A DNA stretch of 64,000 bases. Origin: an uncultured Gammaproteobacteria bacterium. GTDB taxonomy: Bacteria; Pseudomonadota; Gammaproteobacteria; Ga0077536. The stretch spans positions 91,388-155,387 of the forward strand of contig CALOBG010000021.1 in assembly GCA_942490995.1 (NCBI GenBank). The letters run 5' to 3'. A program made the translations under genes and the position numbers. The notes under the pieces were generated by a model, which did not search any database, was not told where the DNA came from, and saw nothing but the letters and a program-made list of their open reading frames with translations. This document shows, one piece after another, positions 25,033 through 48,685 of the stretch (position 1 is the stretch's first letter; every line of letters starts with the position of its first letter).

Positions 25033-27477
25033 TCAAACGGAATCCAGCAGCTGGGCCAGGCGGCGCGCCAGGGCCGGCGCGTTTTCGCTGCTGATGGCAT
25101 CGCCGCTGTCATGGCCCGGCGCGGCCAGGATTTCAACGTCACTGCCCAGTACCGCAGGATCGCGCATTATCGGCGCGCCACCGGCCTCCTCGGCTGCGTC
25201 GCGCGCCGTATGCAGAACCACGATACGCCGCGCATAGGGGCGTGGCTGGTAATTCCTGGTCGCCGCGAGGTTGGATGCCGTCACGATGTTCAGTCGCAGC
25301 TCGGTGCGGGCGCCGTAGAACGGGTCACGATGGCGAATTTTTTCACGCGCGAGAGCGATTTTTCCGGCCAGCCAGGCACGCCTGCCAGGGCCGTCAAGGC
25401 GGCGTAACTCGGCCATGTAAAGACGTATCCGCCCAAGTACGAAGCGCACGCGAATGCCGAGACCGGTCGGCGCACTGCTCACCGTGTGCGCGGCCGGACG
25501 AGCAAAAAACGGGTCCATCAGGATCAGCAGCTGTGGCGCCCGCCCGGCCTTGTCGAGTCGATGCGCCATCTCGAACGCGGCCGCAGCTCCCCAACAGATA
25601 CCCAACAGCGCAAATGGTCGTCCATCGAGGTCGGGCATCGCGGCGATGAATTCGTCGGCGATCGACTCGATCCGCGTCAAGGCCTGACCCTGACCATCCA
25701 GTCCTTTGCTTTGCAGCCCGAAAAACGGCTGCCCGGGACCGAGTGCGCGGGCCAGTGCCTCCAGGCTGACGACATTTCCACCTACCCCCGGCACCACGAA
25801 CAGAGGCGGCCGCGAACCGCGCGGCTGAATCGCGACCAGCACCGAAGACGGCAACTCCGGTTGTTCCAGCAGGCGCAGCAATTTACGGATGCTGCCCGCT
25901 TCAAACAGGATCGACAGCGGCAGACTGCGGCCGATGACCGTTTCCATCTCGCCGAACACCAGCGCGGCCTGCACGGAGCTGCCGCCGAGGGCAAAAAAGT
26001 CGTCGTCGATACCGATCCGTTCGAGGCCCAGCGCGGCACGCCAGATTTCGCATAGCCTTGTCGCCAGGTCAGACAGATCCGCGGCGGCCGGCACCGCTAT
26101 CTCGGGCTGAGCCGCCGACGGCGGCGTCAGCAGGGTGCGCGCGTGGCGCAGCACCGGTTCGGCTTCGAGTTTGGCCAGCAGCGTAGCGAGCGTGGCGTCG
26201 CCGACTTCGACCAGCACGGCGAAAACCCGCTCGAGCAGATCGACACAGGCCTCGGCCAGCGCCGCACCGACCACGGCTGTGTCGTACACCGCGCTGATTT
26301 GTAGCGCCCCATGTGATTCCGCGATAAACAAAGAGAGCGGGAACGCATTGTCACTCGGGCTTGCGATCTGCTCGATCACGAGATCGTCGCTGCGGCGGGT
26401 CTCCGTACCCGGCGCGTGCAGCACCAGCAGGACATCGAATAGCGGCGTATCCAGCGGTACCCCGCTGGCGCGCTGAACGTCGGCCAATGACAGGTATTCG
26501 TATGGCTGACGCGCGCTGGCAGCGGCGTGCAGGTCCCGCAGCCAGGCGCCAAAATCTACATCTTGGTCGAGGGTGAAAAACACCGGCACGTTGTTGATGA
26601 ACGAGCCCATCGTCCGCTCGATATTGCGCACCCCTGGCGGCCGCCCCGATACGGTGAGCCCGAAGCAGGTCTCACTGCTATTGGCGAGCTTTGCGAGGGC
26701 GATAGCGAGCGCCGCCTGGATCACTACTGCAAAGGTCGTGCGCTGGCTGCGGGCGATCGCGGCCAGCGCCGCCGTGGCCGCTGCCGGCAGCCGGCGGCTG
26801 AGCGAAGGCTGGCCGTCACGGGCATCGCCGTCACGCCGCTCGGCTCGCCAGAACAACAACTGCGGGCGTCGTAAACCTCTCCCCACCGAGACCCAATAGC
26901 GCTCGGCAGCCGCGCGATCCTGATTCTTCAGCCACGCTATGTAGTCGCGATAGCGCCCGGGTGGCGGCAGCGCCGCACCGCGCTGCGCGTAACATGCGAA
27001 CAACTCCTCGAACAGGATGTCCACGCACCAACGGTCGAGGATCAGGTGGTGGCGGGTCCAGATCAGGAGCCAGTCATCCGCGCCGGTCCGCAGCAGCGTC
27101 AGGCGCATCAACGGCGCTCGGCGCAGATCAAATAGCTGCCGCCGTTCACCTTCGTAGTGCGTCGCCAGCGCCCGTTCGCGCTCGGCGTCGGCGAGGACGC
27201 TGAGATCTTCGTACTCAAATGGCACGGTGACCTTATTGCGGATCACCTGCACCGGTTGCTGGACCCCTTCCCAGACGAAGCCCGCGCGCAGGATCTCGTG
27301 TCGCGCGAGGAGCTGCTGCCACGCGTCGTGAAAGCGCTTTACATCGAGTTCGCCGTGGATGCGGTAGCGGAATTGATTGACCAGCACGTGCGAGTCGGTG
27401 GCCGCGAGCGTATGCGTCAGCATCAAATGCTGCATGGGCGACAGCGGGTATATGTCGTCGATATTTTTTTGGGGCAT
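25033..27477 (-). CDS. NRPS termination protein: condensation domain - PCP - thioesterase, with a Cys in the TE nucleophile position (GICWG) and no A domain.
   Basis: C motif HHLILDRWC (aa ~143), PCP FFALGGSSVQA (aa ~495), TE GxCxG LLGICWGAAAAFEMA (Cys628, codon at 25594-25596). 814 aa. Confidence 0.85.
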   Translation of the reverse strand: MPQKNIDDIYPLSPMQHLMLTHTLAATDSHVLVNQFRYRIHGELDVKRFHDAWQQLLARHEILRAGFVWEGVQQPVQVIRNKVTVPFEYEDLSVLADAERERALATHYEGERRQLFDLRRAPLMRLTLLRTGADDWLLIWTRHHLILDRWCVDILFEELFACYAQRGAALPPPGRYRDYIAWLKNQDRAAAERYWVSVGRGLRRPQLLFWRAERRDGDARDGQPSLSRRLPAAATAALAAIARSQRTTFAVVIQAALAIALAKLANSSETCFGLTVSGRPPGVRNIERTMGSFINNVPVFFTLDQDVDFGAWLRDLHAAASARQPYEYLSLADVQRASGVPLDTPLFDVLLVLHAPGTETRRSDDLVIEQIASPSDNAFPLSLFIAESHGALQISAVYDTAVVGAALAEACVDLLERVFAVLVEVGDATLATLLAKLEAEPVLRHARTLLTPPSAAQPEIAVPAAADLSDLATRLCEIWRAALGLERIGIDDDFFALGGSSVQAALVFGEMETVIGRSLPLSILFEAGSIRKLLRLLEQPELPSSVLVAIQPRGSRPPLFVVPGVGGNVVSLEALARALGPGQPFFGLQSKGLDGQGQALTRIESIADEFIAAMPDLDGRPFALLGICWGAAAAFEMAHRLDKAGRAPQLLILMDPFFARPAAHTVSSAPTGLGIRVRFVLGRIRLYMAELRRLDGPGRRAWLAGKIALAREKIRHRDPFYGARTELRLNIVTASNLAATRNYQPRPYARRIVVLHTARDAAEEAGGAPIMRDPAVLGSDVEILAAPGHDSGDAISSENAPALARRLAQLLDSV

Positions 27478-27606
27478 ACTTGTTGTCGCCTTACCGAGCC
27501 ACGTGACCGAGATCCCACCGATGCGTCGTTCGCTGGTTAATGCTGCTGAATTCCGTTATCGAAAGCCAGCCTGGCCGAGGGCGCCGCGAGCGCTGGGGTC
27601 GATGGC

Positions 27607-29208
27607 TTGAATCTCAGCATCCAACACGGCTTCGCAAGCTTGCGCCGGCACCCGTTCGTCGTACTCAGCGGCGAAGTGGCGTTGCTGTTGATCAGTTTTG
27701 TCGCTATCGAACGGATAATTTTCTACTTCGCGCGCCTGCCGCCAAGCGCCTACGGTGAAGCGCATCTGACCCTGGCCGTCCTTCGCCACGCCGACCCGCT
27801 GTTCGGCGCCGCGCTGATGCTCGCCTTCCTCGGCTGGATGCGCTACGGCGGCGCGCCGCGGCGCTGGACGACGATCGTCGGCGGCGCTCCGATCCGTGCC
27901 TGCGTCGTACTTATATGTGCGCTGTTGGCGTGGTCGCTGAGCACTTATGGGCATAACTATTTTTATGATCAGGCCTACGCCATCGATCGCGTATTGCTGC
28001 TCGCACTGGCGGCACTGGTAGCCTGGCGTCCAGGGTTTGTATTCCCGTTTCTGCTGCTGAGCGTTGCCATGCATTGGCAAATCATGCAGCCATCGCTGGG
28101 CAGCGGTTCGTATCTCAACCACACCCTGCAACTGGTGCACGTCGTTGCACTGTTTGGCGCCAGCCTGTTGATCTACCCGCTGCTCGAACGGCGCTACGCG
28201 GATCGGTTCTGGCTGTTTGTCTGTTGCCTGGTCGCGGCGGTTTACTGGGAACCCGGCATCAGCAAGGTGGGCATTGGCTGGCTCGACTATGCAGGCCTGC
28301 ACTTCATGCCGCTGGCGGCCTATGCGCATGGTTGGCGCAGCGCGCTGGCGCCCGAGGCGATCGTTGAATTCGCGAATCTGTTGACGGCGTTCGACACCCC
28401 CATGCGCATATTTGTCCTCGCCATCGAACTCGGCTGCATCGCCTTTCTTGCCCACCGTTTGTGGTCGATCGCACTGCTGGGCCTGGTCATGGTTTTCCAT
28501 CTCGGCGTTTTTGTCCTGTACGGCTACTTGTTCTGGACCTGGATCGCGCTCGACGCCATCCTCATCAGCGTACTCATAGCCGATCTAAGGGTCGCGCGCA
28601 TCGCCATCTACAGCCGAGGCCACCTGCTGCTGTCGATGCTCCTGATCGGCACTGCGGGGTATTGGTGTCAGCCGTCCAGTCTGGCCTGGTTCGATTCGCC
28701 ACTGAGCTATACCTTTCGCTATTTTGGGGTCGGCGACAGCGGTGTTGAATATGAAGTCCCGCCGCGCTTCTTCGCGCCCTACGGCGATGCCTTTACGATG
28801 GCGAACTTCTCCTACCTCATTAATGAGCACAAGGTTCTGGTCAGCCCTTACGGGATCGCCAACCGCGCGCGCATCGGCGGCCTGCTCGCGGCACGCGACG
28901 CCGCCGATATTTTCCGACTCGAGAACGAACTCGGCGCGAACCGCTATGATGCCGCACGCGCCGAACAATACTACGATTTCCTGACCCGCTACCTCGAGCA
29001 TTACAACCGTCGACAGCGGCACTTCGATGCGCAGCGTTACGCGCCGCCACCGCAGTTCTGGAACCACCCACGCGGCCGGGTCTACACCGGACAGGAGGCG
29101 CTGCGCGAGCTACAGGTGGTGGCGTACACCACCTTCTTTGACGGTCAGACCCTGAGCGTTATCCGGCGTTCGCCGCTGCGAACGCTGCAGCTTTCGCGCG
29201 CCCCGTAA
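27607..29208 (+). CDS. Polytopic integral membrane protein of unknown function (≥9 predicted TM segments plus a ~160-aa C-terminal soluble domain).
   Basis: Many hydrophobic helices (…FVFPFLLLSVAMHWQIM…, …LGLVMVFHLGVFVLYGYLFWTWIALDAILISVLIA…). Divergent from the C-T-TE gene, inside the NRPS island. No confident family match. Confidence 0.5.
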   Translation: MNLSIQHGFASLRRHPFVVLSGEVALLLISFVAIERIIFYFARLPPSAYGEAHLTLAVLRHADPLFGAALMLAFLGWMRYGGAPRRWTTIVGGAPIRACVVLICALLAWSLSTYGHNYFYDQAYAIDRVLLLALAALVAWRPGFVFPFLLLSVAMHWQIMQPSLGSGSYLNHTLQLVHVVALFGASLLIYPLLERRYADRFWLFVCCLVAAVYWEPGISKVGIGWLDYAGLHFMPLAAYAHGWRSALAPEAIVEFANLLTAFDTPMRIFVLAIELGCIAFLAHRLWSIALLGLVMVFHLGVFVLYGYLFWTWIALDAILISVLIADLRVARIAIYSRGHLLLSMLLIGTAGYWCQPSSLAWFDSPLSYTFRYFGVGDSGVEYEVPPRFFAPYGDAFTMANFSYLINEHKVLVSPYGIANRARIGGLLAARDAADIFRLENELGANRYDAARAEQYYDFLTRYLEHYNRRQRHFDAQRYAPPPQFWNHPRGRVYTGQEALRELQVVAYTTFFDGQTLSVIRRSPLRTLQLSRAP

Positions 29209-29247
29209 CGGCAGCGCTGGCGCTCCACACTTCGATCACCGCTGCAC

Positions 29248-29925
29248 TCACGCACCGGGATCGCTTTCGAGACCGTCGAGCATTGCGGCGATCTCGCTGA
29301 TCTGGGATTCGTCGAGGTCGATCAGGGGTTCGTCGGCAGCAACGCTGTCGGGGCCCGCCTCGCTGGTGGCGGCGGCCTGTGCGGCGATAGTGGGGTGGTC
29401 AAAAAACTGCTCCGGCGACAATTTCAGGCCCTGCGACTGCGCGCGCGACAGGATACGAATGCTCAGCAGCGAGTCGCCGCCGAGTTCGAAAAAATTATCG
29501 TCGACACTGACCTCGTCGATGCCGAGCACATCGCACCAGATCTGTGCCAGCAGGCGTTCGGCGCGGGTGGTCGGCGCCGTACCTGTTTCGCTCACGTTCA
29601 CTTCAAGTGCGCCGGCCAGAGCCACTGCGGCGCGACGGTCGAGTTTACCGTTGGCCAGACGCGGCAGGGCGGTAACCGCGAGAAACTGGCGCGGCACCAT
29701 GTACTCGGGCAACCGCTCGGTGAGATGCGCGGTGAGTTCGCTCGCCTGCGGATGCCGCTCGGCGCGCGCGACGAAACACGCCACCAGCCGTGCGCTGTCC
29801 GGCGCCTGCGCAAGGGTGTGCTGCGTGATCAGTGCGCCGAGCAGACGCCTGCGTTCCGGCGCCAGCTGTCGCAGCCGCTCCGCCACACTTCGAGCAGAGC
29901 CCTTGCCGCTTGAGGTAACGCTCAT
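29248..29925 (-). CDS. NRPS fragment: C-terminal A-domain subdomain (motifs A9-A10) plus PCP.
   Basis: …LVACFVA…LPEYMVPRQFLAVTALPRLANGKLDR (A9/A10), then PCP FFELGGDSLLSI. Its ATG overlaps the stop of the upstream methyltransferase ORF (ATGA). Confidence 0.75.
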   Translation of the reverse strand: MSVTSSGKGSARSVAERLRQLAPERRRLLGALITQHTLAQAPDSARLVACFVARAERHPQASELTAHLTERLPEYMVPRQFLAVTALPRLANGKLDRRAAVALAGALEVNVSETGTAPTTRAERLLAQIWCDVLGIDEVSVDDNFFELGGDSLLSIRILSRAQSQGLKLSPEQFFDHPTIAAQAAATSEAGPDSVAADEPLIDLDESQISEIAAMLDGLESDPGA

Positions 29926-30713
29926 TTAATCGCCCTGACCACAACCATTGACCGCGCCCACCAGGCGTCCTGCACGTCCTGCGGAATATCCAGCGCGTCT
30001 ACCCGCGACAGGTGGATGGCGCTGAAATGTTCGAACAGCCGGCGCTGGTGACCGCGACTCAGCGAATCGATTTCGTTGGACAGATAGGTGAAGCTGCCGC
30101 CAGGATGCAGGTGGGCCGCGGCGTGGGCAAAAAAATGCTCGGCGAAAGTTGTACTGGCAGCGATCTGTTCGATGAACTCGTCTTCGTTCAAGGGGTAGGT
30201 GTGAAAAAAAATCCCATCGAATGCTCCCAATTGCGGCAGAACGTCCTGCCACATGCCGCCGAGCATCTCGATTGCTCGGTCAGGATAGCTATCGCGCCAG
30301 CGCTGAAATCGCCCGATGATATGCTCATTGCATTCGATAATCGTGTGGGTACTAACGCCGCAATCCTGGATCAGGGCCGAGGCAATCCCACGGCCGAAAC
30401 CGATTTCCAGGATATCGCCGTGACTGACCGTCACCGCGTCGGCCATCGCGCGCATCAACGGGATCTGCCAGTCTTCCATGATCTGCTCGTCGCTCAGTTC
30501 AGCCTGCGCGCGGTCCGCGGTGACCAGCTTATCGCTGCCGGCCACGAGCTCGCCCGCCGTGCGGTCCAGCGCGAGCAGGTTATCGGCCAATTCGCTGACC
30601 GCCCGGTTGAGCAGCCAGTTGCGCTGCGCGTCGCGTGGCGGACGGATAAAATCCTCGCGTTTGATCTCGAGGCTGATCGCAAAATCCCGCGTCTTTTTGT
30701 AGCGTCTGGTCAT
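29922..30713 (-). CDS. SAM-dependent methyltransferase of the guanidinoacetate N-methyltransferase (GAMT/RMT2-like) fold.
   Basis: QIPLMRAMADAVTVSHGDILEIGFGRGIAS…THTIIECNEHIIGRFQRW…MWQDVLPQLGAFDGIFFHTYPLNEDEF aligns closely with mammalian GAMT (…RVLEVGFGMAIAAS…HWIIECNDGVFQRL…[29 protein letters not shown]). ATGA overlaps at both ends. Confidence 0.8.
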   Translation of the reverse strand: MTRRYKKTRDFAISLEIKREDFIRPPRDAQRNWLLNRAVSELADNLLALDRTAGELVAGSDKLVTADRAQAELSDEQIMEDWQIPLMRAMADAVTVSHGDILEIGFGRGIASALIQDCGVSTHTIIECNEHIIGRFQRWRDSYPDRAIEMLGGMWQDVLPQLGAFDGIFFHTYPLNEDEFIEQIAASTTFAEHFFAHAAAHLHPGGSFTYLSNEIDSLSRGHQRRLFEHFSAIHLSRVDALDIPQDVQDAWWARSMVVVRAIK

Positions 30714-33577
30714 GTTTGCGCCCGGCTCGTCGAAGTCTGCTCGAATGCGCCAAGGTCACTGAGTGCGGCAGCCACTTCTATTTCGGTGAGTCCCTCAACC
30801 CGCTCCAGCAAGGCGGATACGATTTCATCTGGCAGCGCTGTCAGCGCGGTCTCCAGCTTTTCCATGTCGCCGTCCGTAATCGGGGCCAGACTTGCACGAT
30901 CGGCCACGAACACCATCGCTTCCGCGACGTCCGCGTGCTGCTGCAGCGCCGCTTCGACTTCTTCCGGTTCGATACGAAAGCCACGTACCTTGACCTGGTG
31001 GTCGATACGCCCAAGAAACTCGAAGCGGCCGTCGCGCAGTTGGCGAACCCGGTCGCCGGTCCGGTAGAGGCGCGGATCCGGCTCGGCTCGGAACGGATTG
31101 TCGATGAAGTTCTCAACATTGCGCGGGTCGTCGCCGACATAGCCGGCGGCGATGCACACGCCTCCTATCAGTAACTCGCCCTCGGCGCCGAGGGGCACCG
31201 GCCGTAGCTGCGCGTCGACGACGTAGGTGGAGACGTGGGGCAGCGGCCTGCCGATGGTGACGCGGGTAGCAGCGCCGTCGGCGGTGAGCTCCGCCATCGT
31301 TGCCCACACCGTCGCTTCGGTTGGCCCGTACTCGTTGTACAAAGCGGTGTTCGGCAGTTGCCGGCAGTGCTCGAGCTGCAGCCGCGCCGGACATGCCTCG
31401 CCCGCAACGATAACGCTACGCAGGTCCGGCAGCGCGACGCCGCCGAGCTGCTCGACAATGAGCGCGTGCAGGCTTGGCAGGCACAGCACATGGGTGATCC
31501 CCTCACTGGCGATGCGTGCAACCAGGCCGGCCATGTCCTGCTCGGCCCGCGCGCGCGGCAACACCAGGGTGCCACCGGTGGTCAGCGTCCAGAACAGACC
31601 GGCCACCGAGCTGTCCGTCGCCAATGACGACAAAAGTAGAAACCTGGCCGGATCATGACCATAAACCTGGCTACGCGCCGCTGTCGCAACCTGTAGCTGG
31701 CGGTGAGAAATCATCACCCCTTTGGCAGCGCCGGTGCTGCCCGAAGTGAACATCACGTAGGCCAGGGTGTCGGCGTCACTGGCCACCACGGCCGCCGCCG
31801 CGGCCGGCGAAGCAGGCGCTGTATCGGTGCACAGCGCCTGCCACGGTGGCGGTACATGCGCGGCTGCGACGGAGGTCGTCACGACCACGCCGGCCTGACC
31901 ATCCGCAGCGGCGAGCGTCGCCAGCAGGGCCGCGATGCGCGCTGGTGGGTGCGACGTATCCAGCGGTACGTAGGCGCCTCCGGCAAACAGGATCGCAAGG
32001 ATCGCAACAATCGCCTCGCTATCGCGCGCCATCAGCACCGGCACGCTGTTGCCTGCGGCGACGCCACGCTCGGCAAGCGTAGTGGCCAGCACCGCAGCGC
32101 GTTCGACAAGTTCCGCGTAGCTGAGCTCGCCGCGTTCGTCGCGCACGGCAATCGCCTGCGGTGTGCGCAAGGCTACCTCGACAATCCGCTCATGGATCCC
32201 GCCGCGAACCGAAGTCGATGCCGCGGGCGGCAACGCGGGCGCAAGCAGCCGCGCCTGTTCGTTGGGACTACACGGCGGCGCCTGCTTGAGTGGTTGCGCC
32301 ATGCCGGCGTTCATGAATGCCAACGTAGCGATGACGTGCTGCAGCAGCGACTCGACGAACTCGTCGCCGAACTTCGCGCGATCGTAGACCGCGATGAGTT
32401 CCAGTTCGGCCCCGGGCACGGCAAGCAGGGCAAAAGGATAGTGGCTGAATTCGCGGTAGTTTTCCTCGCTCGGCGCCAGTGCCGCCCCCCCGCCGTCGCC
32501 GGCGGCGGCAAAATTCTCGACCACCAGGATGGTGTCAAACAACGGTGTCCCCGGCGCCACCGCACTCCATTTCTGGATCTCGGCAAGCGGCGTCTGTTCA
32601 AATTGACGCGCCGCCAGGTGTGCTGCCTGGATCGCATGCAGGTAGTCACCCAGACTGGCCTGCGACGAGATGGCGATCCGTTGCGGCAAGGTGTTGATGA
32701 ACAGGCCGACGATCGATTCCGCGCCGTGCAGGTCGGCGGGGCGGCCGTGACTGGTCGTGCCGAAGACGACGTCGTCACTGCCGGCGTGGCGAGCGAGTAC
32801 CCACGCGTAGGCGCCGGCGAGCATGGTGTAAAAAGTCAGCCGTTGTTCGCGCGCCAGCCTCTGCAGGGCTTGCCATCGCTCGCCGTCGAGCACCTCGCAG
32901 CGTGTCGCCCCGGCGCCTGCCGGGCCCGCGCTCGTGGCCTCGGATCCGGCATCGACGAGCCGCGTAGGTGCTGCGAAACCATCCAGTGCCGAGCGCCAGT
33001 AGCTGTGCGCGGCCGTGTGATCCCGCTGCTCCAGCCAGCGCACGAATGTTTCAAAGGCCGGCGCCGCCGGCGCGCGCGCTGACGATCCATAAGCCGCGGC
33101 GAGCTCGTTCAGGACCAGGCGAGCCGACCAGCCGTCAACCACGAGGTGGTGGAAGCTCCATAGCATGCGCCACGAGTCCGCGCCGAGACGGAACAACGCA
33201 ACGCGCAGCAGCGGTGCCTGTTCGAGTACGAAACCGCGCGCCCGGTCAGCGTCGAGGAAAGCCGCGAAACGAGCGCTCTGGTCCGCGGCCGGCAGGTCGC
33301 TCCAGTCCTCATCGTGCCACGGCAGGTCGACCTGCCGGCGAACCAGCTGCAGGGGTTTTTGCCGTCCCTCCCAGCTGAACAGGGTACGCAGGGCATCGTG
33401 GCGCTGAACGATCCCGCACCAGGCTTCGCGCAGACGTTGCGGGTCGATAGCCTGCTCGTAACGACAACTGTACTGGTCGAAGTAGACGCGCTCATCGGGC
33501 CGGCGCAGGGTGTGGTAGAGGATCCCTTCCTGCATCGGGGTCAGGCGATAAATCGCCTTGATGTTGCTGTCTGCCAT
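30710..33577 (-). CDS. NRPS fragment: condensation domain + A-domain core (motifs A1-A8), ending just after A8.
   Basis: C: HHLVVDGWS. A: LAYVMFTSGSTGAAKG (A3), YNEYGPTEATV (A5), YRTGDRV (A7), GRIDHQVKVRGFRIEPEEVE (A8), then HADVAEAMVFV. The probable start is MADSNIK at 33577 (ORF-track Met at 33628). Confidence 0.8.
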   Translation of the reverse strand: MADSNIKAIYRLTPMQEGILYHTLRRPDERVYFDQYSCRYEQAIDPQRLREAWCGIVQRHDALRTLFSWEGRQKPLQLVRRQVDLPWHDEDWSDLPAADQSARFAAFLDADRARGFVLEQAPLLRVALFRLGADSWRMLWSFHHLVVDGWSARLVLNELAAAYGSSARAPAAPAFETFVRWLEQRDHTAAHSYWRSALDGFAAPTRLVDAGSEATSAGPAGAGATRCEVLDGERWQALQRLAREQRLTFYTMLAGAYAWVLARHAGSDDVVFGTTSHGRPADLHGAESIVGLFINTLPQRIAISSQASLGDYLHAIQAAHLAARQFEQTPLAEIQKWSAVAPGTPLFDTILVVENFAAAGDGGGAALAPSEENYREFSHYPFALLAVPGAELELIAVYDRAKFGDEFVESLLQHVIATLAFMNAGMAQPLKQAPPCSPNEQARLLAPALPPAASTSVRGGIHERIVEVALRTPQAIAVRDERGELSYAELVERAAVLATTLAERGVAAGNSVPVLMARDSEAIVAILAILFAGGAYVPLDTSHPPARIAALLATLAAADGQAGVVVTTSVAAAHVPPPWQALCTDTAPASPAAAAAVVASDADTLAYVMFTSGSTGAAKGVMISHRQLQVATAARSQVYGHDPARFLLLSSLATDSSVAGLFWTLTTGGTLVLPRARAEQDMAGLVARIASEGITHVLCLPSLHALIVEQLGGVALPDLRSVIVAGEACPARLQLEHCRQLPNTALYNEYGPTEATVWATMAELTADGAATRVTIGRPLPHVSTYVVDAQLRPVPLGAEGELLIGGVCIAAGYVGDDPRNVENFIDNPFRAEPDPRLYRTGDRVRQLRDGRFEFLGRIDHQVKVRGFRIEPEEVEAALQQHADVAEAMVFVADRASLAPITDGDMEKLETALTALPDEIVSALLERVEGLTEIEVAAALSDLGAFEQTSTSRAQT

Positions 33578-33590
33578 ATGCCCGGCGTCC

Positions 33591-39134: not shown

Positions 39135-39140
39135 GTCCGT

Positions 39141-39383
39141 CTAGTCGTGGCTGCGCTGCGCGACGTAGGCGGCGATGGTGTTGATCGAACGGAAGTACTC
39201 GATACTGAAATCCTGTGGCGGGATCTCGAACCCGTAGGTCTCCTCGAGGTAACCGACCAGGCGCACCATACCGAGCGAATCGACCACCCCGTCATTGAGC
39301 AGCATATCGTCGTCGCCGACCACGTGCGGACCTTCGAGCAGCTCGTCGTGGATAAAAGCAGCGATGGTGTCCCTGATATTCAC
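39141..39383 (-). CDS. Stand-alone peptidyl/acyl carrier protein.
   Basis: 80 aa, phosphopantetheine-attachment serine in …DGVVDSLGMVRLV…. Sits 13 nt downstream of the stand-alone A domain. Confidence 0.75.
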   Translation of the reverse strand: MNIRDTIAAFIHDELLEGPHVVGDDDMLLNDGVVDSLGMVRLVGYLEETYGFEIPPQDFSIEYFRSINTIAAYVAQRSHD

Positions 39384-39396
39384 GCTCGCTCCTCGC

Positions 39397-40980
39397 TCAG
39401 ACGCGGTTGGTGGTTGTGGACGAATACGCTTCGCGCAGCGCGCGGCGGTCGATTTTACCGCTGGAGGTGCGCGGAAACACCTTGCGCAGCTCGATGGAAC
39501 TCGGCACGGAATACCACGGCAGCGCGCGTTTCAGTTCGCTGGTCAGATCGCCGCTATCGACCCCGGCGTCGCCTTTGAGCGTTACGGCGGCGTGGATCTC
39601 ACCGCCGCCATCGGCGTCGCTTACGACAAAAACGCCAGCCTCTTCGACCACCGCGATGGCGCTCAAGGCGGCCTCGATTTCGTCAAGTTCCACTCGATAA
39701 CCACGCACCTTGACCTGGCGATCCTTGCGCCCGAGAAACCATAGCAGACCGCTGTGATCCTCACGCACCACATCACCGGTGCGATAAAACACTTCCTCGT
39801 GCCCGGCAATGCGCTCGCGACGATAAAACGCGCGTTCATTGAGTTCGGGTCGGCCCCAGTAGCCGCGCATCATGGTCGGTGAACGCACCAGCAGTTCGCC
39901 GTCGACCCCCGGCGGTACCTCGCGGTCCTGCTCATCGACGATCAGGGCCTCAGCGGTGTCGGCAATCGGGCCAATCGGGATGCTGTCCGCGTCCATGGCC
40001 AGATCACGAACCGTGTAATGGGTCACGCCATTGACTTCCGCCGGGCCGTAGATGTTGTCAAAGCTGACCCACGGCAGAACCTCACGTAATGCGCGCAGGT
40101 GTTTGAGCGGCATCGGTTCGCCACCGAATATCGCCCAGCGCAGCGCGCTCAGATCACGTTGTTCCAGCGCACCGCGCAGGAGCAACTGGATCAGCGCGAA
40201 CGGCACGGTATACAGCACCGTAATGCCCTGATCCTGGATCAGCTGTGAATAGCTCGCCGGCAAACGCGTGTAAGCCTCGGGAACAATCGCCGTCGCGCAG
40301 CCTGCCAGTGCGGCCGAAAAAAAATCCATGATCGAGAGATCGAAATGCAGCGGCGCGTGGTTGCTGAGCACGTCCTCGGCGTGGAACCGATACTCGTGCG
40401 CAGCCCAGCGTGCGAAACTCAGGCCGCTGGCATGGGTGTGCATCATACCCTTGGGCGCACCGGTCGAACCGGAGGTATACATGATGTAAGCGAGGTCCTG
40501 CTCGATAATTTTGCGCCGTGGCGGCGCGGCAGTCAGCGCGCCGCGAACTTCGCTCGGCGTGTAGTTACGCAAACCCTCGCCCGTCGCAGCGGCCAATCCG
40601 ACGGTCGCCTCGAGTGCGCATCCTTGAGCGATCTGGGCCAGCCTGCTTGCTTTGTGTTCCCCTGTAACGACGCAACGCATGCCACAGCTGCGCGCGATTT
40701 CGGCGCTGCGGGCCGGCGGCGCGGCCGGGTCGAGTGGCACGTATGCTGCGCCCGCCTTCATGATCCCGTACAGGGCGACCGCCGTGTCGATGCATTTGTC
40801 CATGTAAATGCCGACCGGTTCGCCGCGCGTCACACCGGCATCGACGAGGATATGGGCGAGCGCATTGGATCGCGCGGCCAGGTCACCGTAGCTCAGGGAT
40901 TGCTCGAGAAACTTGATCGCCGGTCGTTCGGGGGTGCGTTCCGCGACGTAATCTGGGGCATGGTAAATAAGCGTTATCAT
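39397..40980 (-). CDS. Stand-alone NRPS-type adenylation enzyme (amino-acid-AMP ligase) that loads the adjacent carrier protein.
   Basis: A1 LSYGDL, A2 LKAGAAYVPLD, A3 YIMYTSGSTGAPKG, A4 FDLS (Asp235 present), A5 NIYGPAE, A7 YRTGDV, A8 GRKDRQVKVRGYRVELDEIE, A10 SSGKIDR. Confidence 0.85.
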   Translation of the reverse strand: MITLIYHAPDYVAERTPERPAIKFLEQSLSYGDLAARSNALAHILVDAGVTRGEPVGIYMDKCIDTAVALYGIMKAGAAYVPLDPAAPPARSAEIARSCGMRCVVTGEHKASRLAQIAQGCALEATVGLAAATGEGLRNYTPSEVRGALTAAPPRRKIIEQDLAYIMYTSGSTGAPKGMMHTHASGLSFARWAAHEYRFHAEDVLSNHAPLHFDLSIMDFFSAALAGCATAIVPEAYTRLPASYSQLIQDQGITVLYTVPFALIQLLLRGALEQRDLSALRWAIFGGEPMPLKHLRALREVLPWVSFDNIYGPAEVNGVTHYTVRDLAMDADSIPIGPIADTAEALIVDEQDREVPPGVDGELLVRSPTMMRGYWGRPELNERAFYRRERIAGHEEVFYRTGDVVREDHSGLLWFLGRKDRQVKVRGYRVELDEIEAALSAIAVVEEAGVFVVSDADGGGEIHAAVTLKGDAGVDSGDLTSELKRALPWYSVPSSIELRKVFPRTSSGKIDRRALREAYSSTTTNRV

Positions 40981-41006
40981 GATCGTCGTCTGTCCGCCGC
41001 CGGTTT

Positions 41007-42155
41007 CTACAACCCGAGCATGCGGGCGACGATATTGCGCTGGATATCGGAGGTTCCGGCGTAGATCAAGCCGCCAACCGCGTCGCGCAAATCGCGTTCG
41101 ATGCCGGCCTCGCTGACATAACCCTCGCCGCCGTGGACGCGGATTGCATCGAGACTCGACTGGGTAAAACTTTCGCTGATATGCAGCTTGAGCAGGGCCG
41201 CCTCCGCGATCGCGCTGCGCCCGGACATTTTGAGCCAGGCGACTTTGTACAACAGCAGCCTAGCGGTTTCGAGGCGCAACTTCATATCAACGATACGGTT
41301 GGATACGGACTGAAATTTACCGATGGCCTGACCAAACTGGTGGCGCTTGCGTGCGTACGCGATAGTTTCGTCGAGCTGTCTGGCCATCGCGCCCAGTTGG
41401 CTGGCAAGGATGCTGCATCGCTCCCATTCCAGGAACCCGTTCGAAAGGCTGACACCGGCCCCCTCCGCCCCGAGCCGTTGCGCGACCGGCACCAGGCAGT
41501 CTTCGAATATCAATTCGCCGAACGGCACACTACGCAGGCCCATCTTCTCGCGATTGACGCCGACCCGGCAGCCGGCGGACGCAGTTTCGACCAGGAACGC
41601 ACTGATCCCCCATTTGCCAACCGACGGATCGGTACTCGCGAAAACCAACGCGACGTCTGCCACCGGGCCAAGTGAGACATAGCGCTTTTTGCCGTTCAGG
41701 ACATAGCCGCCGTCACATGCTGTCGCGCGGGTCGCCAGGCTGAACACGTCGGAGCCGGTGTCATCTTCGGTAATGGCATGGCAACCGATCATGTCACCGG
41801 CGGCGAGTGGCGGAAGAAAGCGCGCTTTCAACGCTTCGCTGCCGGCCTGCACGATGGGCAGTTGTACCGTCCACATCTGCGCATTAAGGGCAAACGCCAG
41901 ACCGTTGTCACGGCAGCCATAGCCGAAACCTTCCATGGCCAGGATTGCGGTTAGAAAATCGGTGTCCGGAAATCCACTATAGGCTGTCGGTAACGACATG
42001 GCCTGGATGCCGAACTCGGCGCAGGCGCGCCATTTTTCCTGCGGAAAGCGACTCAGGTGATCGTCGACGTCGACTTCGTGCGTGAGCCTGGTCGCGGCGA
42101 ATTGTTGCACCGCCGCCTGGCGCGCGAGTTGGGCTTCGGTCCAGTTGAAATCCAT
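41007..42155 (-). CDS. Acyl-CoA dehydrogenase-family FAD enzyme (PltE/RedW-like acyl- or aminoacyl-S-carrier-protein dehydrogenase).
   Basis: 382 aa with the ACAD three-domain fold (…GKKRYVSLGPVADVALVFA…; C-terminal …IYAGTSDIQRNIVARMLGL). Directly upstream of the stand-alone A and PCP genes. Confidence 0.8.
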   Translation of the reverse strand: MDFNWTEAQLARQAAVQQFAATRLTHEVDVDDHLSRFPQEKWRACAEFGIQAMSLPTAYSGFPDTDFLTAILAMEGFGYGCRDNGLAFALNAQMWTVQLPIVQAGSEALKARFLPPLAAGDMIGCHAITEDDTGSDVFSLATRATACDGGYVLNGKKRYVSLGPVADVALVFASTDPSVGKWGISAFLVETASAGCRVGVNREKMGLRSVPFGELIFEDCLVPVAQRLGAEGAGVSLSNGFLEWERCSILASQLGAMARQLDETIAYARKRHQFGQAIGKFQSVSNRIVDMKLRLETARLLLYKVAWLKMSGRSAIAEAALLKLHISESFTQSSLDAIRVHGGEGYVSEAGIERDLRDAVGGLIYAGTSDIQRNIVARMLGL

Positions 42156-42164
42156 GGCGGCGCG

Positions 42165-43472
42165 CTAGCCGAACAGCACAAGCAGGCGTTGCAGCAGCGC
42201 GCCAGCCGGCAGGTTGATTTCGAATGCGCGTTCTACGAACCAATAGACGGCAATGACGATCAGGACAACAGCGCCGCCCGGCACCACGACCTTCAGGTAC
42301 AGATCGCTGGCCCGGATCAAGTAAATCACAGGAAAGACGGCCGCAACGATGGCCAGCTGGCCGAGCTCGACGCCGAGATTGAATCCCAGCAGGGAGTGTA
42401 CGAGGTAGCCGGCCGGAATGCCGATCTCGGACAACACGCTGGCGAAACCGAAGCCGTGGAACAACCCGAACACGAATACTACCCAGCCGATGCGGCCATG
42501 GAAGATGGGCACCAGCAGGTCGAACGCCGCGATGGCGATCGACGCCGCGATCACCGATTCGACGAATCGCGATGATAGTTCGACCGTGCCCAGGGTGGCG
42601 TAGCTGAGCGTGATGGTATGCGCGACGGTAAACAGGGTCACGATTTTGATCAGGTAGATCAGCGCCGGCCGCGCCGATGGCAGCGCTCGCCAATGACTCG
42701 AGGATCGCTGCAGTACGCCGGGCAACAGCAGCGCGACGAGGAAAAGAATGTGATCGATCCCGATCCAGATGTGGTGCGTGCCAAGCGAAACCATGGCCAC
42801 GAAACCGCGCCACGTCGACCCCTGGGATAAATCCAGCGTCTGCGTGGTCGCGTTCGGTGCGAAAACCAGCGCGATATTGGTTTCATTGTCAAACGTACCG
42901 GTCTGCCAATTGCGCTCAATCACCAGCAGACCGCGATGCTGCGGTTGTTCGTCAAACAGCACTTCGTAGCGCACATCGATCGCAGCAGGCGGCCGTGGCT
43001 GGTTGGGAAGTGCGAATTCGAGCACGACGTACTGCGCTTCGGTGGTCGGGAGGAACCGAATCGGCCCGAATTCAAGTGTTGCCGTGCGTCCTTCAAGCGC
43101 AAACGCAACGCGCTCACGATAGTAGGCATGAATGGCGGCAGTATGCGCTGCAAGATTATCGCCCGTGGCGCTGCCGTCAGTGGGCAGTCCAAGATCCAGC
43201 GCGAGGTTCAGATCGGCCGTGGTGATTTCCAGGCGGCCGCCGACGCGTTCGCCATCGAGCTGCAGGAACAGGTAACTCTGGCCGAGCTTATGGGCGTGGG
43301 CGACACCGATGCTGCCGAACAGCACAGCGGTCACGATCAATAACCACGGCGCGCGCAGCGGGTTGGGCCTCGGCGGTCGGGAAACTGGACGCGGGTTCAA
43401 GATAATTTCAGCGTACCTTGTGAGTTGCGGGTAAGACCGCCCGCCGCCGGCAGGTTCCGGTGTAGACGACAT
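42165..43472 (-). CDS. HupE/UreJ_2-family membrane protein (putative Ni/Co-type metal permease) with an N-terminal periplasmic domain; the start is uncertain.
   Basis: Motif LGTHHIWIGIDHILFLVALLLPG and the downstream His/Gly-rich TM helix FGLFHGFGFASVL. First gene of the co-oriented NRPS operon. Start set at ATG 43472. Confidence 0.55.
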   Translation of the reverse strand: MSSTPEPAGGGRSYPQLTRYAEIILNPRPVSRPPRPNPLRAPWLLIVTAVLFGSIGVAHAHKLGQSYLFLQLDGERVGGRLEITTADLNLALDLGLPTDGSATGDNLAAHTAAIHAYYRERVAFALEGRTATLEFGPIRFLPTTEAQYVVLEFALPNQPRPPAAIDVRYEVLFDEQPQHRGLLVIERNWQTGTFDNETNIALVFAPNATTQTLDLSQGSTWRGFVAMVSLGTHHIWIGIDHILFLVALLLPGVLQRSSSHWRALPSARPALIYLIKIVTLFTVAHTITLSYATLGTVELSSRFVESVIAASIAIAAFDLLVPIFHGRIGWVVFVFGLFHGFGFASVLSEIGIPAGYLVHSLLGFNLGVELGQLAIVAAVFPVIYLIRASDLYLKVVVPGGAVVLIVIAVYWFVERAFEINLPAGALLQRLLVLFG

Positions 43473-43681
43473 ACTAGTGTAGCAGCGGCTTTCCGTGCGC
43501 GACCGGTGCTGCCACGGTAAATTTGTGTGAACTTTCCCATAATTACCCGTCAGACATTGCGATCGCGGCGCAACGATGACATCGTGACGCGTGCGCTGGC
43601 AGCCGGGATCGACGACAACGGCGAACCACATACGGGCGCGCGGACACTCAACACAATGTATCCACGAAATCCGGCATCGTC

Positions 43682-44779
43682 ATGCAGTCTCTGATCCTGA
43701 GCGCGAAGGACCTCGCGACGCTCGTGCGTCGGGTCGGACTCGATACCTTGTTCGACGACGTTGTAAGTGCCCTGCACGACGCGTGTAGTTCATTTACGCC
43801 GGAACGATACACGGTAGCGGTGCGCGAAGGGTTTTATTACCGCGAACCGGAAGTCGGGTTACTCGAATGGATGCCGACCCTGGAAGCCGGGCGCAGCGCG
43901 ACGCTCAAGGTCGTCAGTTACCACCCGCACAACGCGCAAAGCCATGGCCTGCCGACTATCCTTTCGACCTTGCTTGCGTTTGACCCACGCAGTGGACACC
44001 TGTGTGGACTGGTTGACGGCACCTTCGCCACGGCGTTGCGTACGGCGGCAGCGTCGGTGGTGGCAAGCCGGATCCTCGCCCCGCCGGACGCGCGCAGCAT
44101 CGGGTTCATTGGCTGCGGTGCACAGGCGCTTGCCCATCTGCATGGCCTGCGGCGCAGCTTCGACCTCGACACCGTGTACCTGTTCGATACCGAGCCGACC
44201 ACCAGCGCCAGTTTCGCCGCCCGTGCTCGCGGTCTGGGTCTCGATGGACTCAGCTTTGTGCCGGTCAGTGCGGCACAGGTACTGGCGGCGGCGGACATTC
44301 TTGTCACCGCTACCTCTGTCGCAATCGATGCCGAGCCCGTGGTCAGCGATGGCGTGCATCGCGGATCCCTGCATATCAATGCCGTGGGGTCTGATTTTCC
44401 GGGTAAGTGCGAGCTGCCATTGAGCCTGCTGAAGCGCGCGTTGGTGTGTCCGGACGTAGTTGAGCAGGCGCAAAAAGAAGGCGAATGCCAGCGACTGACG
44501 AACGCCGAAATCGGCCCCGACCTGGTGCAGTTGGTGCAGTCGGCCGACCGTTACCGCGATGCCCGCAGCCGCTTGACGGTATTCGACTCCACCGGTTGGG
44601 GCCTGGAAGACCACGTTACGCTCAAGATACTGCTCGCGTATGCCGGCGAACTCGGCATCGGCACACCGACCACGATCGAAACAAGCGCTGCCGATCCGCG
44701 CAACCCGTATTGCTTTGTCCACGACGCCAACGCAGCGATCATCCCGGACGCCCGCCTGCGGGCCATCGACGCCGGCTAG
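43682..44779 (+). CDS. Ornithine cyclodeaminase / mu-crystallin-family protein.
   Basis: 365 aa with an OCD-like Rossmann region (…IGFIGCGAQALAHL…) and family-typical N-terminus. Divergent from the NRPS operon. Confidence 0.75.
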   Translation: MQSLILSAKDLATLVRRVGLDTLFDDVVSALHDACSSFTPERYTVAVREGFYYREPEVGLLEWMPTLEAGRSATLKVVSYHPHNAQSHGLPTILSTLLAFDPRSGHLCGLVDGTFATALRTAAASVVASRILAPPDARSIGFIGCGAQALAHLHGLRRSFDLDTVYLFDTEPTTSASFAARARGLGLDGLSFVPVSAAQVLAAADILVTATSVAIDAEPVVSDGVHRGSLHINAVGSDFPGKCELPLSLLKRALVCPDVVEQAQKEGECQRLTNAEIGPDLVQLVQSADRYRDARSRLTVFDSTGWGLEDHVTLKILLAYAGELGIGTPTTIETSAADPRNPYCFVHDANAAIIPDARLRAIDAG

Positions 44780-44815
44780 CCGGACACGCTGGCGCGGGAC
44801 ACGGCGGCGGCCATA

Positions 44816-45577
44816 TTGACCGGCAAAAACAGCGATCACGCCTGGCTTATCGGCTTGCACGCGGACGCCGAGGGCCTGGCGCGCGCCCGCGCCGTACTCA
44901 GTGACGCCGAACTGGAGCGCGCCGCGCGGTTCGCCTTCGCGACCGTCGCCGAACGCTGGATCCTCGCCCACGCCGCCTGTCGAAGGATCCTGGCGCGCTA
45001 CCTCGACAAGGATCCGCGCGCGCTGATATTTGCAGAAAATGACAACGGCAAACCCTGTCTGGCCGGCACGCCCGGCAGGTCACGCCTGTATTTCAACTTT
45101 TCGCGCTCTCACCAATACGCCCTGCTGGCGATCAGCTACCACAGCGAAATCGGCGCGGATATCGAACATTGCGCGGCAATCGACGATCTCGAAAGCGTCG
45201 CCCGGCGCTTTTTCTGTCCCGCCGAGCGTCGCACTATCCTTGCGCTCAGCGGCGCACAACGAGTGCAGGCGTTCTACCGGTGCTGGACGCGCAAGGAAGC
45301 TATTCTCAAGGCCAGCGGCAAAGGTTTGCGGGTCGCGCTCAACAGTTTCGAGGTGTCGCTGCAGGACCGGCCGCGTCCGCGCCTGATCAGCGTCGCCGAC
45401 GACGAAGCTGAGGCCGTACGCTGGAGTCTGCACCACTACGCAAGCGACGCGTACATCGCCGCGGTCGCCTACCGCGACGCGCCGCGCAACCTGCGCTGGT
45501 TCATCGAACCCTCGAAAGAGCCGTCACCGGCGTTCGCATCGATCAGTCGATCCGCGGAGAAATGCCCAGGCATTTGA
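44816..45577 (+). CDS. Sfp-type 4'-phosphopantetheinyl transferase.
   Basis: Motifs …FNFSRSHQYALLAI… and WTRKEAILKASGKGL (the W/FxxKEAxxK signature). Confidence 0.8.
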   Translation: MTGKNSDHAWLIGLHADAEGLARARAVLSDAELERAARFAFATVAERWILAHAACRRILARYLDKDPRALIFAENDNGKPCLAGTPGRSRLYFNFSRSHQYALLAISYHSEIGADIEHCAAIDDLESVARRFFCPAERRTILALSGAQRVQAFYRCWTRKEAILKASGKGLRVALNSFEVSLQDRPRPRLISVADDEAEAVRWSLHHYASDAYIAAVAYRDAPRNLRWFIEPSKEPSPAFASISRSAEKCPGI

Positions 45578-47036: not shown

Positions 47037-47133
47037 ACAGGCGTGCGAAAACTTCGGACACGATTCGTGGCGTGCGTGTCTTGTTATTCCGCACACCTAA
47101 TTTAGTCGCGCGGGAGAACTCGGCGGCCGCGGC

Positions 47134-48663: not shown

Positions 48664-48685
48664 AATCGAAACTCCCCGAGAATAT

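Follow-up and report, generated by a model that had tools for sequence, protein, structure and literature searches.

A nonribosomal peptide synthetase cluster family with a PP-loop domain embedded in an asparagine-type adenylation domain and a methylating adenylation domain in three pieces

Gene content of the NRPS island

A nonribosomal peptide synthetase (NRPS) island was analysed within a 64,000-nucleotide stretch of DNA from an uncultured Gammaproteobacteria bacterium of the GTDB lineage Ga0077536 (GenBank assembly GCA_942490995.1, contig CALOBG010000021.1, positions 91,388 to 155,387 of the forward strand), hereafter the window, numbered from its first nucleotide. The island, at 25033-45577, belongs to a cluster family whose defining oddities are a PP-loop ATP-pyrophosphatase domain, a hybrid of N-acetyl sugar amidotransferase (NASAT) and TtuA features, located in an Asn-specific adenylation (A) domain, and a methylating A domain conserved in three pieces. 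The identities of the domains, their order, their conservation and their active-site motifs are matters of observation. As far as its sequence can tell, the region is regarded as a functional NRPS cluster of a widespread and seemingly uncharacterised family.

From its right-hand end, the minus strand encoded a HupE_UreJ_2 membrane protein (42165-43631; Pfam PF13795 HupE_UreJ_2, 9.7e-42), an ACAD-family enzyme of the PigA/RedW/PltE type, putatively an L-prolyl-S-PCP dehydrogenase (41007-42155; Pfam ACAD N, M and C domains), a stand-alone adenylation enzyme, A1, which is probably Pro-specific (39397-40980; AMP-binding and AMP-binding_C), a discrete 80-aa peptidyl carrier protein (PCP) whose serine motif reads DSL (39141-39383; PP-binding, 1e-7), and NRPS1, a protein of 1847 aa (33591-39134; Pfam and NCBIfam). 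NRPS1 comprised a condensation (C) domain, C1, with the motif HHVVTD (37785-39134; Pfam Condensation, and an NCBIfam alignment to the N-terminal C-A region of MxcG and EntF), the core of the A2 domain with motifs A1-A8 (36465-37742; AMP-binding, 3.7e-73), the PP-loop insert, with a NASAT fold, between motifs A8 and A9 (35469-36449), the C-terminal subdomain of A2 (motifs A9/A10, NGKLDR at residue 1279) followed by a thiolation (T) domain with LGGDS at residue 1334 (35022-35468; AMP-binding_C and PP-binding), and an epimerisation (E) domain (33594-34982).

Further along the same strand lay NRPS2, of 972 aa, with a DCL-type C domain, C2, and the core of the A3 domain with motifs A1-A8 (30710-33628; Pfam Condensation and AMP-binding); the ATG at 33577 is likely its start codon. 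It was followed by a 263-aa S-adenosylmethionine (SAM) methyltransferase (MT) of guanidinoacetate N-methyltransferase (GAMT) fold, located between the two halves of A3 (29922-30713), and by a 225-aa open reading frame (ORF) carrying the C-terminal subdomain of A3 (motifs A9/A10, NGKLDR at residue 92) and a T domain with LGGDS at residue 148 (29248-29925; AMP-binding_C and PP-binding). A polytopic membrane protein of 533 aa without family match was encoded on the plus strand (27607-29208), divergent from the gene for a terminal protein of 814 aa on the minus strand, which contained a third C domain (C3), a T domain and a thioesterase (TE) domain and no A domain (25033-27477; Pfam Condensation, PP-binding and Thioesterase). 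At the other end of the island, the plus strand encoded an enzyme of the ornithine cyclodeaminase (OCD) family (43682-44779; Pfam OCD_Mu_crystall, 1.1e-54; NCBIfam ornithine cyclodeaminase, 8.7e-52) and a Sfp/HetI-type 4'-phosphopantetheinyl transferase (PPTase; 44816-45577; Pfam ACPS, 4.5e-22; NCBIfam HetI, 2.6e-47).

Domain E-values across the island ranged from 1e-16 to 1e-120, which excludes chance matches. The core motifs were intact, with HHxxxD in all C and E domains, motifs A3, A7, A8 and A10 in the A domains, and GxCxG in the TE; each of the four carrier domains had its serine motif (GGxS or DSL). The region thus holds C, A, T and TE domains with intact motifs together with a PPTase, as expected of an NRPS cluster. 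The gene order and coordinates given on the minus strand by a first-pass annotation, made from the sequence without database searches, were borne out, as were its counts of three A domains and four carriers. From the HupE-like gene through the A9/A10-T ORF, genes were separated by short intergenic gaps or joined by ATGA overlaps, a spacing consistent with one operon. In the promoter and terminator scan, promoter-like sites were absent and sites resembling terminators did not exceed background; the scan was uninformative for a genome with 63% GC.

A PP-loop domain within the A domain of module 1

In the uninterrupted A1 enzyme, motifs A8 (residue 417) and A10 (residue 507) were 90 residues apart. 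In NRPS1, motif A8 (GRIDQQVKVNGIRIELGE) was found at residue 853 and motif A10 (NGKLDR) at residue 1279, corresponding to approximately 320 extra residues. A2 thus has an interruption of the A8-A9 type, with a foreign domain inserted within one polypeptide, and the earlier proposal of an A domain interrupted by a PP-loop tailoring domain was upheld. The AlphaFold model of the insert (16 homologues) reached a pLDDT of 92.9 and showed an independent domain fold.

The best family match of the insert in NCBIfam was TIGR03573 (WbuX, N-acetyl sugar amidotransferase; 4e-27), with a score of 95.5 bits against a cut-off of 203.2 and coverage of profile positions 2-203 of 344, and a whole-domain fold comparison also identified the overall fold as that of NASAT. 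The signatures of the NASAT family are a tetracysteine CxxC-Xn-[GN]xCxxC and an SGGxDS motif (LpNASAT structure, PMC10607449). Both were present in the insert, as a Zn tetracysteine formed by C901, C904, C921 and C924 (YCVHC...GVCGIC) and as the PP-loop SGGKDS at residues 966-971, and both were conserved in 120 homologues. Matches to QueC were weak in Pfam and NCBIfam; neither database held a model specific to the insert, and public annotations were generic.

In addition, the insert possessed a CxxC...C triad (C1037, C1040 and C1162) that was 100% invariant across the 120-homologue alignment. The combination of a PP-loop with three such cysteines is the feature of TtcA, TtuA, Ncs6, CtaC and [4Fe-4S] LarE. 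In CtaC, D77 and S78 belong to the ATP site, while C154, C157 and C284 bind the [4Fe-4S] cluster and are required if PCP-bound peptides are to be thioamidated (PMC6772006). The triad followed the PP-loop at spacings of 66 and then 122 residues in the insert, and of 76 and 127 residues in CtaC. The best PDB sequence match to the insert family profile was 8cnz, the [4Fe-4S] LarE of M. maripaludis, with the CxxC aligned to VCNGC. By sequence and fold, however, the nearest relatives of the insert were NASATs and not the [4Fe-4S] PP-loop sulfur transferases. The initial label "TtuA-like" therefore holds for the PP-loop superfamily and for the TtuA/CtaC-like cysteine triad, but not for the closest family and fold; membership in the TtuA family was rejected, and TtuA was retained as a mechanistic analogy through the triad.

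The distribution of the triad was inspected in an alignment of the Roseovarius NRPS insert, three annotated NASATs and a stand-alone homologue from Bacillus thuringiensis. It was present in the Roseovarius insert and in the Bacillus thuringiensis homologue, kept in one annotated NASAT with hisH/hisF neighbours, and absent from the two other NASATs. As a hisH/hisF-adjacent NASAT keeps it, the triad was discarded as a discriminator between sulfur and nitrogen chemistry, and at the level of sequence it is suggestive of sulfur chemistry without being decisive.

The NASAT with the triad was that of Rhodobacteraceae SC52 (L031 3022-4227, hisH/hisF adjacent; related loci are cited by L numbers), and the two without it were located at L030 2857-4134 and L032 2908-4161; the NASATs may be split into triad-bearing and triad-less subfamilies. 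The stand-alone homologue, encoded on a plasmid of B. thuringiensis HD1002 (NZ_CP009349.1; L029 12013-12984), had about 323 aa, was 28% identical to the insert and was annotated as 'QueC'. It kept the Zn tetracysteine, the SGGKDS motif and the CxxC...C triad, and its gene was located between those for an acyl carrier protein (ACP) and two adenylate-forming enzymes, near genes for two PCPs, KS, FabZ, FabG, AsnB, a PPTase and a radical SAM enzyme. The PP-loop domain thus also occurs in another thiotemplated setting, one of type II.

Stachelhaus positions were mapped by motif and transferred through tblastn and blastp alignments. The specificity residues of A2 in the window were DLTKIGEVG, which we take to be the classical Asn code (Stachelhaus et al. 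1999), and DLTK[IV]GEVG was found in every insert-bearing relative (L001-L009, L023, L025, L028 and L034). Most relatives without the insert in module 1 had a different, Ser-like code (e.g. DVWHLSL), the exception being L020, which lacked the insert yet had the Asn-like DLTKVGEVA. This strict association of the insert with Asn is the main argument for the Asn side-chain carboxamide as its probable target.

An A domain distributed over three polypeptides

The C-A protein of module 2, NRPS2, ended 82 residues past motif A8, and the MT ORF and the A9/A10-T ORF each started at an ATGA overlap, the three ORFs lying in three frames. Module 2 consequently has an M-type interruption without single-polypeptide continuity. 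A second interrupted A domain had been described initially; the order of motifs A1-8, MT and motifs A9-10 stood, with the domain spread over three ORFs. The same breakpoints were found in Aridibacter (L004; ORFs of 981, 262 and 655 aa), and a metagenome-assembled genome (MAG) of Rhodocyclaceae (L034) had ORFs of 962, 263 and 1533 aa with a 4-bp overlap; L036 and L037 showed the same three-ORF arrangement of A3. The split A domain with its MT is accordingly shared by distant lineages, among them Acidobacteriota and Rhodocyclaceae. A frameshift artefact was rejected on the basis of these four conserved sets of boundaries and of the homologues of the MT, 1220 in number, the best 120 of which were all stand-alone proteins of 257-279 aa, mostly 263.

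The MT was matched to the PDB structure of guanidinoacetate N-methyltransferase (1xcj, 6e-24), with sequence similarity over the SAM-binding core, so that its first description as "GAMT-type" was sustained; its homologues belong to the Pfam family PF27704 (GuanidinoAc_N-MeTrfase), while the Pfam and NCBIfam scans gave only faint methyltransferase matches. Unlike GAMT, it has an extra 70-residue N-terminus, and its gene separates the two parts of an NRPS A domain. In GAMT, E45 and D134 are the guanidino binders and base. This acidic pair (numbering of the rat enzyme) was not kept in the MT, in which Q83 and H171 aligned with these positions and were invariant in 120 homologues. With Q83 and H171 in place of E45 and D134, the methyl acceptor is probably not a guanidinium.

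The specificity residues of A3 were DSALIAEVW in the window and DS[AV]L[IMV]AEVW across relatives. The nearest textbook codes are presumably those for His (DSELTAEVCK) and Tyr (DGTITAEVAK), and A3 could not be assigned.

Starter, epimerisation and release modules

The island contained the architecture of a pyrrole-type starter cassette, namely a stand-alone A enzyme, a discrete PCP and an ACAD-type dehydrogenase. In NCBIfam, the ACAD-family enzyme, 50-64% identical among relatives, scored highest for two prolyl-PCP dehydrogenases, PigA with 391 bits and RedW with 354 bits; the next family reached 259 bits. The best single-domain PDB match of A1 was PltF, the L-proline--[L-prolyl-carrier protein] ligase (6o6e, 245 bits). 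The OCD gene adjoining the cluster was kept in five relatives, and its enzyme likely supplies L-proline. Since the ACAD is closest to PigA/RedW, A1 is closest to PltF and the OCD gene is next door, the best reading of the starter is pyrrole-2-carboxyl-S-PCP, as the first-pass annotation had supposed, and C1 of NRPS1 would take such an acyl/aryl-S-PCP starter. The PltF/PltL/PltE, RedM/RedO/RedW and PigI/PigG/PigA cassettes likewise combine a stand-alone A enzyme, a small PCP and an ACAD-family dehydrogenase. Unlike in these cassettes, the pyrrolyl-S-PCP of the window would pass to an NRPS C domain and not to a polyketide synthase or halogenase, the family keeps an OCD gene and a HupE-like gene, and the equivalog cut-offs were not reached.

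The C-terminal domain of NRPS1 (residues 1385-1847) had been taken for a C domain. All ten of its PDB matches were E domains (PvdL, BacC, GrsA, TycA and TycB), its score against TIGR01720 was 105.5 bits for a cut-off of 74.2, and the E motifs HHLLIDGVSW, EGHGRE, RTVGWFTSIYP and FNYLGQ were present. Downstream, C2 scored 198-307 bits against C domains that follow an E domain (McyB N-terminus, PvdL 544-1005, BacC 476-893, SrfA-C and TycB), but only about 80-100 bits against LCL domains. By sequence, the junction between NRPS1 and NRPS2 is therefore a canonical one, an E domain followed by a DCL-type C domain, and the tandem C-C junction was rejected. The sub-typing of C domains, a check named in the first-pass annotation, accordingly reduced its four C domains to three C domains and one E domain, with C2 and C3 both of DCL type. 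In two relatives (L004 and L036) the E domain was placed after module 2 and not after module 1, and its position thus differs between otherwise syntenic clusters.

The terminal protein confirmed the proposed C-T module without a cognate A domain and the Cys at the TE nucleophile position (GICWG, residue 626 of 814). The same position was occupied by Cys in L004, L006, L007, L012 and L013 and by Ser in other relatives. C-T-TE proteins without an A domain were also found in L004 and L037, the homologue in L037 being 46% identical, while the Rhodocyclaceae version consisted of C-A-T-TE fused after the A9/A10-T part. Terminal modules without an A domain are loaded in trans, for example the C-T-TE of SyrE with SyrB1/SyrC, which the protein of the window resembles in this respect; unlike the SyrE-type module, it has a DCL-type C3 without a preceding E domain. 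Cys-thioesterases occur in ObiF and SulM, in connection with the strained rings of obafluorin and sulfazecin, and the GxCxG motif of the window is of the same kind. A FadD-like acyl-CoA ligase gene, convergent on the C-T-TE gene, was present at 23556-25004 (+; NCBIfam PRK12583, 469 bits). The ligase is a candidate for loading the last T domain in trans; it was not found in the flanks of relatives.

The permease and the membrane protein that had been described as embedded in the island were both recovered. The HupE-like gene was syntenic with NRPS genes in 12 relatives (36-45% identity), and the Roseovarius copy was annotated as 'HupE/UreJ family protein'. The HupE_UreJ_2 domain spanned residues 281-441, and an extra N-terminal extracytoplasmic domain of about 180 aa lay outside the Pfam model; as relatives align only from approximately residue 97, the start codon is probably downstream of 43631. 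The 533-aa membrane protein was kept in L004 (31% identity) and in L037 (45%), where it again formed a divergent pair with the C-T-TE gene, in a unit inverted relative to that of the window.

Distribution of the family

The architecture was not peculiar to the window and was that of a large family conserved across phyla. A scan of GTDB representatives yielded 27 loci with 25-45% identity to NRPS1, from Cyanobacteria, Gamma- and Alphaproteobacteria, Acidobacteriota, Saprospiraceae, Anaerolineae and others. Domain-level tblastn showed a conserved core made of the HupE-like protein, ACAD, A, PCP, C-A(PP-loop)-T and C-A-T-(TE). At the protein level, an exhaustive profile search with the insert against 1.84 billion representatives (50%-identity clusters) retrieved 706 proteins at E<=1e-30. 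The best 150 of these 706 all scored above 519 bits and had the PP-loop domain at approximately residues 900-1225; most fell into two length classes, one near 1400 aa with the order C-A(PP)-T and one near 1850 aa with the order C-A(PP)-T-E. Cultured carriers included Roseovarius pelagicus HL-MP18 (plasmid NZ_CP106737.1, 153.8-169.1 kb) and Pseudohalocynthiibacter aestuariivivens (plasmid NZ_CP049039.1), both with the genes on plasmids, and, more distantly, a Streptomyces.

Relatives repeatedly carried genes for a MOP/Wzx-type flippase and an EryCIII-like glycosyltransferase, and one had a TonB-dependent receptor gene beside the NRPS genes (L009 2203-4248, 5462-6961 and 18830-20137; L005 17894-19237; L036 12835-14340; L028 20475-21977 for the three kinds of genes). 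These genes hint at export, possible glycosylation and receptor-mediated uptake.

Proposed pathway and alternative chemistries

From the features above, we infer the substrates, the oxygen-to-sulfur chemistry, the timing of the steps and the binding of metals. The OCD enzyme would supply L-Pro, which A1 would load onto the 80-aa PCP, and the PigA/RedW-like flavoenzyme would oxidise it to pyrrole-2-carboxyl-S-PCP. C1 would couple this starter to Asn on the T domain of NRPS1. The insert would then adenylate the carboxamide oxygen of the tethered Asn or pyrrolyl-Asn, most likely in the Asn side chain, and sulfur, delivered by a [4Fe-4S] cluster that the CxxC...C triad would hold, would take the place of the oxygen; the outcome would be a thioamide, by analogy with CtaC and TtuA. 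The E domain would invert the modified residue to the D configuration, and C2 would add residue 3, a polar aromatic residue resembling His or Tyr and activated by a two-polypeptide A3. The GAMT-fold MT may methylate residue 3 or the chain, the C-T-TE protein would add a residue loaded in trans, and its Cys thioesterase would release the product, with the HupE-like protein and the 533-aa membrane protein handling transport.

The best reading of the product is accordingly a short, methylated, pyrrolyl-capped peptide with a modified D-Asn, in which a thioamide is favoured and an amidine or a nitrile is possible. "Thio-modified", as the product was called initially, is thus one of three plausible outcomes and uncertain. 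As an overall explanation of the island, combining a pyrrole starter, an exchange of O for S in Asn on the carrier, epimerisation, a split A3 and a trans-loaded C-T-TE, this scheme is the best available and is held tentatively, at a little under an even chance. All PP-loop enzymes adenylate a carbonyl oxygen, after which a nucleophile displaces AMP (PMC6772006). The position of the insert, which is that of M domains acting on a T-tethered aminoacyl group, and its tie to Asn argue for O-adenylation of the carrier-bound Asn carboxamide. Sulfur is favoured as the nucleophile by the invariant triad, the alignment with [4Fe-4S] LarE, the precedent of CtaC, whose substrates are carrier-bound, and the want of a partner that would deliver ammonia; a classical NASAT has HisH/HisF adjacent, and no ammonia supplier of the HisH/HisF type was found among the window ORFs scanned.

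Several observations weigh against this scheme. The family closest to the insert by sequence and fold makes amidines and not thioamides, a hisH/hisF-adjacent NASAT keeps the triad, the triad could bind a second zinc, and the cluster showed no gene for a sulfur carrier or a cysteine desulfurase. At the starter end, the ACAD scores were below the equivalog cut-offs (PigA, 391 against 500; RedW, 354 against 650), and the A1 specificity residues, DLMYIGIGV, form an atypical code. Downstream, the substrate of A3 could not be assigned from DSALIAEVW, C3 of the C-T-TE protein is DCL-like although no E domain precedes it in the window, and no shuttling acyltransferase or dedicated A-T loader for the last T domain was identified.

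If the insert is an amidotransferase, the carboxamide oxygen of Asn or acyl-Asn would be adenylated in the same way, and AMP would be displaced by ammonia or by an amine or amide nitrogen of the same molecule, giving an amidine or a cyclic amidine (e.g. a dihydropyrimidinone). TIGR03573 as the best family match (4e-27), the conserved NASAT-specific tetracysteine (CxxC..GxCxxC) and the triad of the hisH/hisF-adjacent NASAT all argue for this possibility. The match, however, reached 95.5 bits against a cut-off of 203 and covered 203 of 344 profile positions, and neither the window nor the neighbourhoods of relatives examined yielded a HisH/HisF or other glutaminase partner. Moreover, the triad, invariant among the NRPS proteins, is missing from two NASATs, and CtaC, the sole PP-loop enzyme with demonstrated activity on carrier-bound peptides, makes thioamides. 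Nitrogen chemistry is thus rather unlikely, though a serious contender. Dehydration of the Asn carboxamide to a nitrile (beta-cyanoalanine), comparable to the second half-reaction of QueC, ToyM or ArtA, or another intramolecular ring closure, would be in line with a cluster that encodes no external N or S donor, with the weak QueC matches in Pfam and NCBIfam and with the QueC annotations of stand-alone relatives in their sources. As the similarity to QueC and ArtA is confined to the PP-loop core, is weaker than that to NASAT or TtuA, and leaves the invariant Cys triad unexplained, this outcome is clearly improbable.

The target could also be a backbone amide, such as the pyrrolyl-Asn bond, or the insert could be a non-catalytic structural relic, a pair of possibilities to which even less weight is given. 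CtaC modifies backbone amides of PCP-bound chains and the substrates of NASATs are secondary amides, but the strict co-occurrence of the insert with an Asn pocket in all relatives examined points to the side chain, and the invariant PP-loop, Zn and Cys-triad residues, together with identities of about 55-66% across phyla, argue against a relic. Finally, three consecutive ORFs in three frames, and a long-read relative (L037) fragmented by frameshifts in NRPS1, would fit a defunct cluster in which the three-ORF A domain and the A-less last module are frameshift artefacts or products of decay. This is extremely improbable given the identical ORF boundaries in Aridibacter (L004), Rhodocyclaceae (L034), L036 and L037, where the MT starts at an ATG of its own and overlaps its neighbours slightly or lies a small distance from them, the stand-alone best 120 of 1220 MT homologues (257-279 aa), the intactness of every catalytic motif, and the C-T-TE proteins without A domain in L004 and L037.

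As for the function of a product with the favoured thioamide, it may be a metal-binding peptide or metallophore, a speculative idea that builds on the co-conserved HupE-like protein and on possible donors of the pyrrolyl-X-His type, and hangs on the A3 code. A bolder version of the proposal, considered unlikely in its entirety, would be a phylum-spanning NRPS family in which a NASAT/TtuA-hybrid domain, forming a new class of NRPS tailoring domain, converts the carrier-bound Asn carboxamide to a thioamide (or amidine) in an ATP- and Fe-S-dependent manner, a pyrrole-2-carbonyl-(thio)Asn-His-like four-donor chelator resembling the amino-terminal Cu(II)- and Ni(II)-binding (ATCUN) motif serves as a Ni, Co or Cu metallophore handled by the HupE-like protein, and A3 is a three-polypeptide complex (A-core, MT and A-sub-T).

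Relation to known systems

No characterised cluster family matching the island was found, in agreement with the first-pass annotation. Among interrupted A domains, a 2024 review (PMC11355689) gives M, KR and Ox/MOx inserts and a 2020 survey (PMC8341866) M domains only; neither includes a PP-loop/AANH insert or a three-polypeptide A domain. The interrupted A domains of TioS, KtzH and PchF likewise have a tailoring domain spliced in after motif A8 and before motif A9, with the cognate T domain following, and from this position the insert of NRPS1 could act on a T-tethered substrate. Unlike in these proteins (M, KR, Ox and MOx), the NRPS1 insert is a PP-loop ATP pyrophosphatase, and the M-type interruption of module 2 is broken into three polypeptides.

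With NASATs (WbpG, WbuX and LpNASAT 8WEX; TIGR03573), the insert shares the tetracysteine Zn motif, SGGxDS and a presumed adenylation of an amide oxygen. NASATs are, however, free enzymes acting on nucleotide sugars and have a variable triad, whereas the insert is embedded in an NRPS, has no HisH/HisF partner and has an invariant triad; moreover, the C-terminal third of the NASAT profile was unmatched by the insert. With CtaC and with TtcA, TtuA, Ncs6 and [4Fe-4S] LarE, it shares the PP-loop fold and the CxxC...C motif, at a spacing that resembles CtaC when compared by published residue positions. CtaC, the thioamide synthetase of closthioamide, works only on carrier-protein-bound peptides; it is a separate enzyme, found in anaerobes, and serves a pathway that does not involve an NRPS, while the insert is part of an NRPS and its Fe-S binding is putative. 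CtaC is the only characterised thioamide synthetase for nonribosomal peptides and is free-standing, and thioamidated nonribosomal peptides are exceedingly rare according to its authors.

In the open-access literature, only the CtaC papers surfaced, and neither this cluster family nor an NRPS with an internal PP-loop/AANH domain was found described. Within the literature searched, no earlier description was found either of a thioamide, amidine or nitrile being installed by a synthetase-embedded domain. If the insert is active, a whole class of modified peptides would have been overlooked, as genome-mining tools would call a plain Asn module. The PP-loop domain is present in hundreds of sequence clusters, which derive from many bacterial phyla and from soil, marine and wastewater settings. 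The conserved three-polypeptide A3 would be a natural split, trans-assembled adenylation domain of relevance to NRPS engineering. The cultured carriers make the family directly testable.

Other genes in the window

Next to the cluster, a DCC1-like thiol-disulfide oxidoreductase gene was located directly after the PPTase gene (45543-45914, -), and could matter if the pathway handles sulfur. An AAA_22 (TniB-like) ATPase was encoded about 5 kb from the cluster (50825-51829, -), and the cluster copy on the Roseovarius plasmid was bordered by TniQ, TniB and Mu-transposase genes (L028 25310-28600); the NRPS cluster family may travel on Tn7-like elements or plasmids.

Similar gene sets flanked the NRPS genes on both sides (17319-22522 and 46161-50814), each with an FMO/BVMO-like monooxygenase, a luciferase-like monooxygenase, an ACAD-like protein and a TetR regulator. 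They were adjacent to none of the relatives examined, and may serve in tailoring or represent a catabolic duplication that has nothing to do with the cluster. The left end of the window (96-5448) carried DUF1302, DUF1329, LolA-like and MMPL/RND genes that are unrelated to the NRPS island; a set of this kind is probably typical of Gammaproteobacteria and a weak hint at the host. The right part of the window also encoded a molybdopterin oxidoreductase beside a flavin/NAD-binding protein with a 4Fe-4S domain (53972-57371, -).

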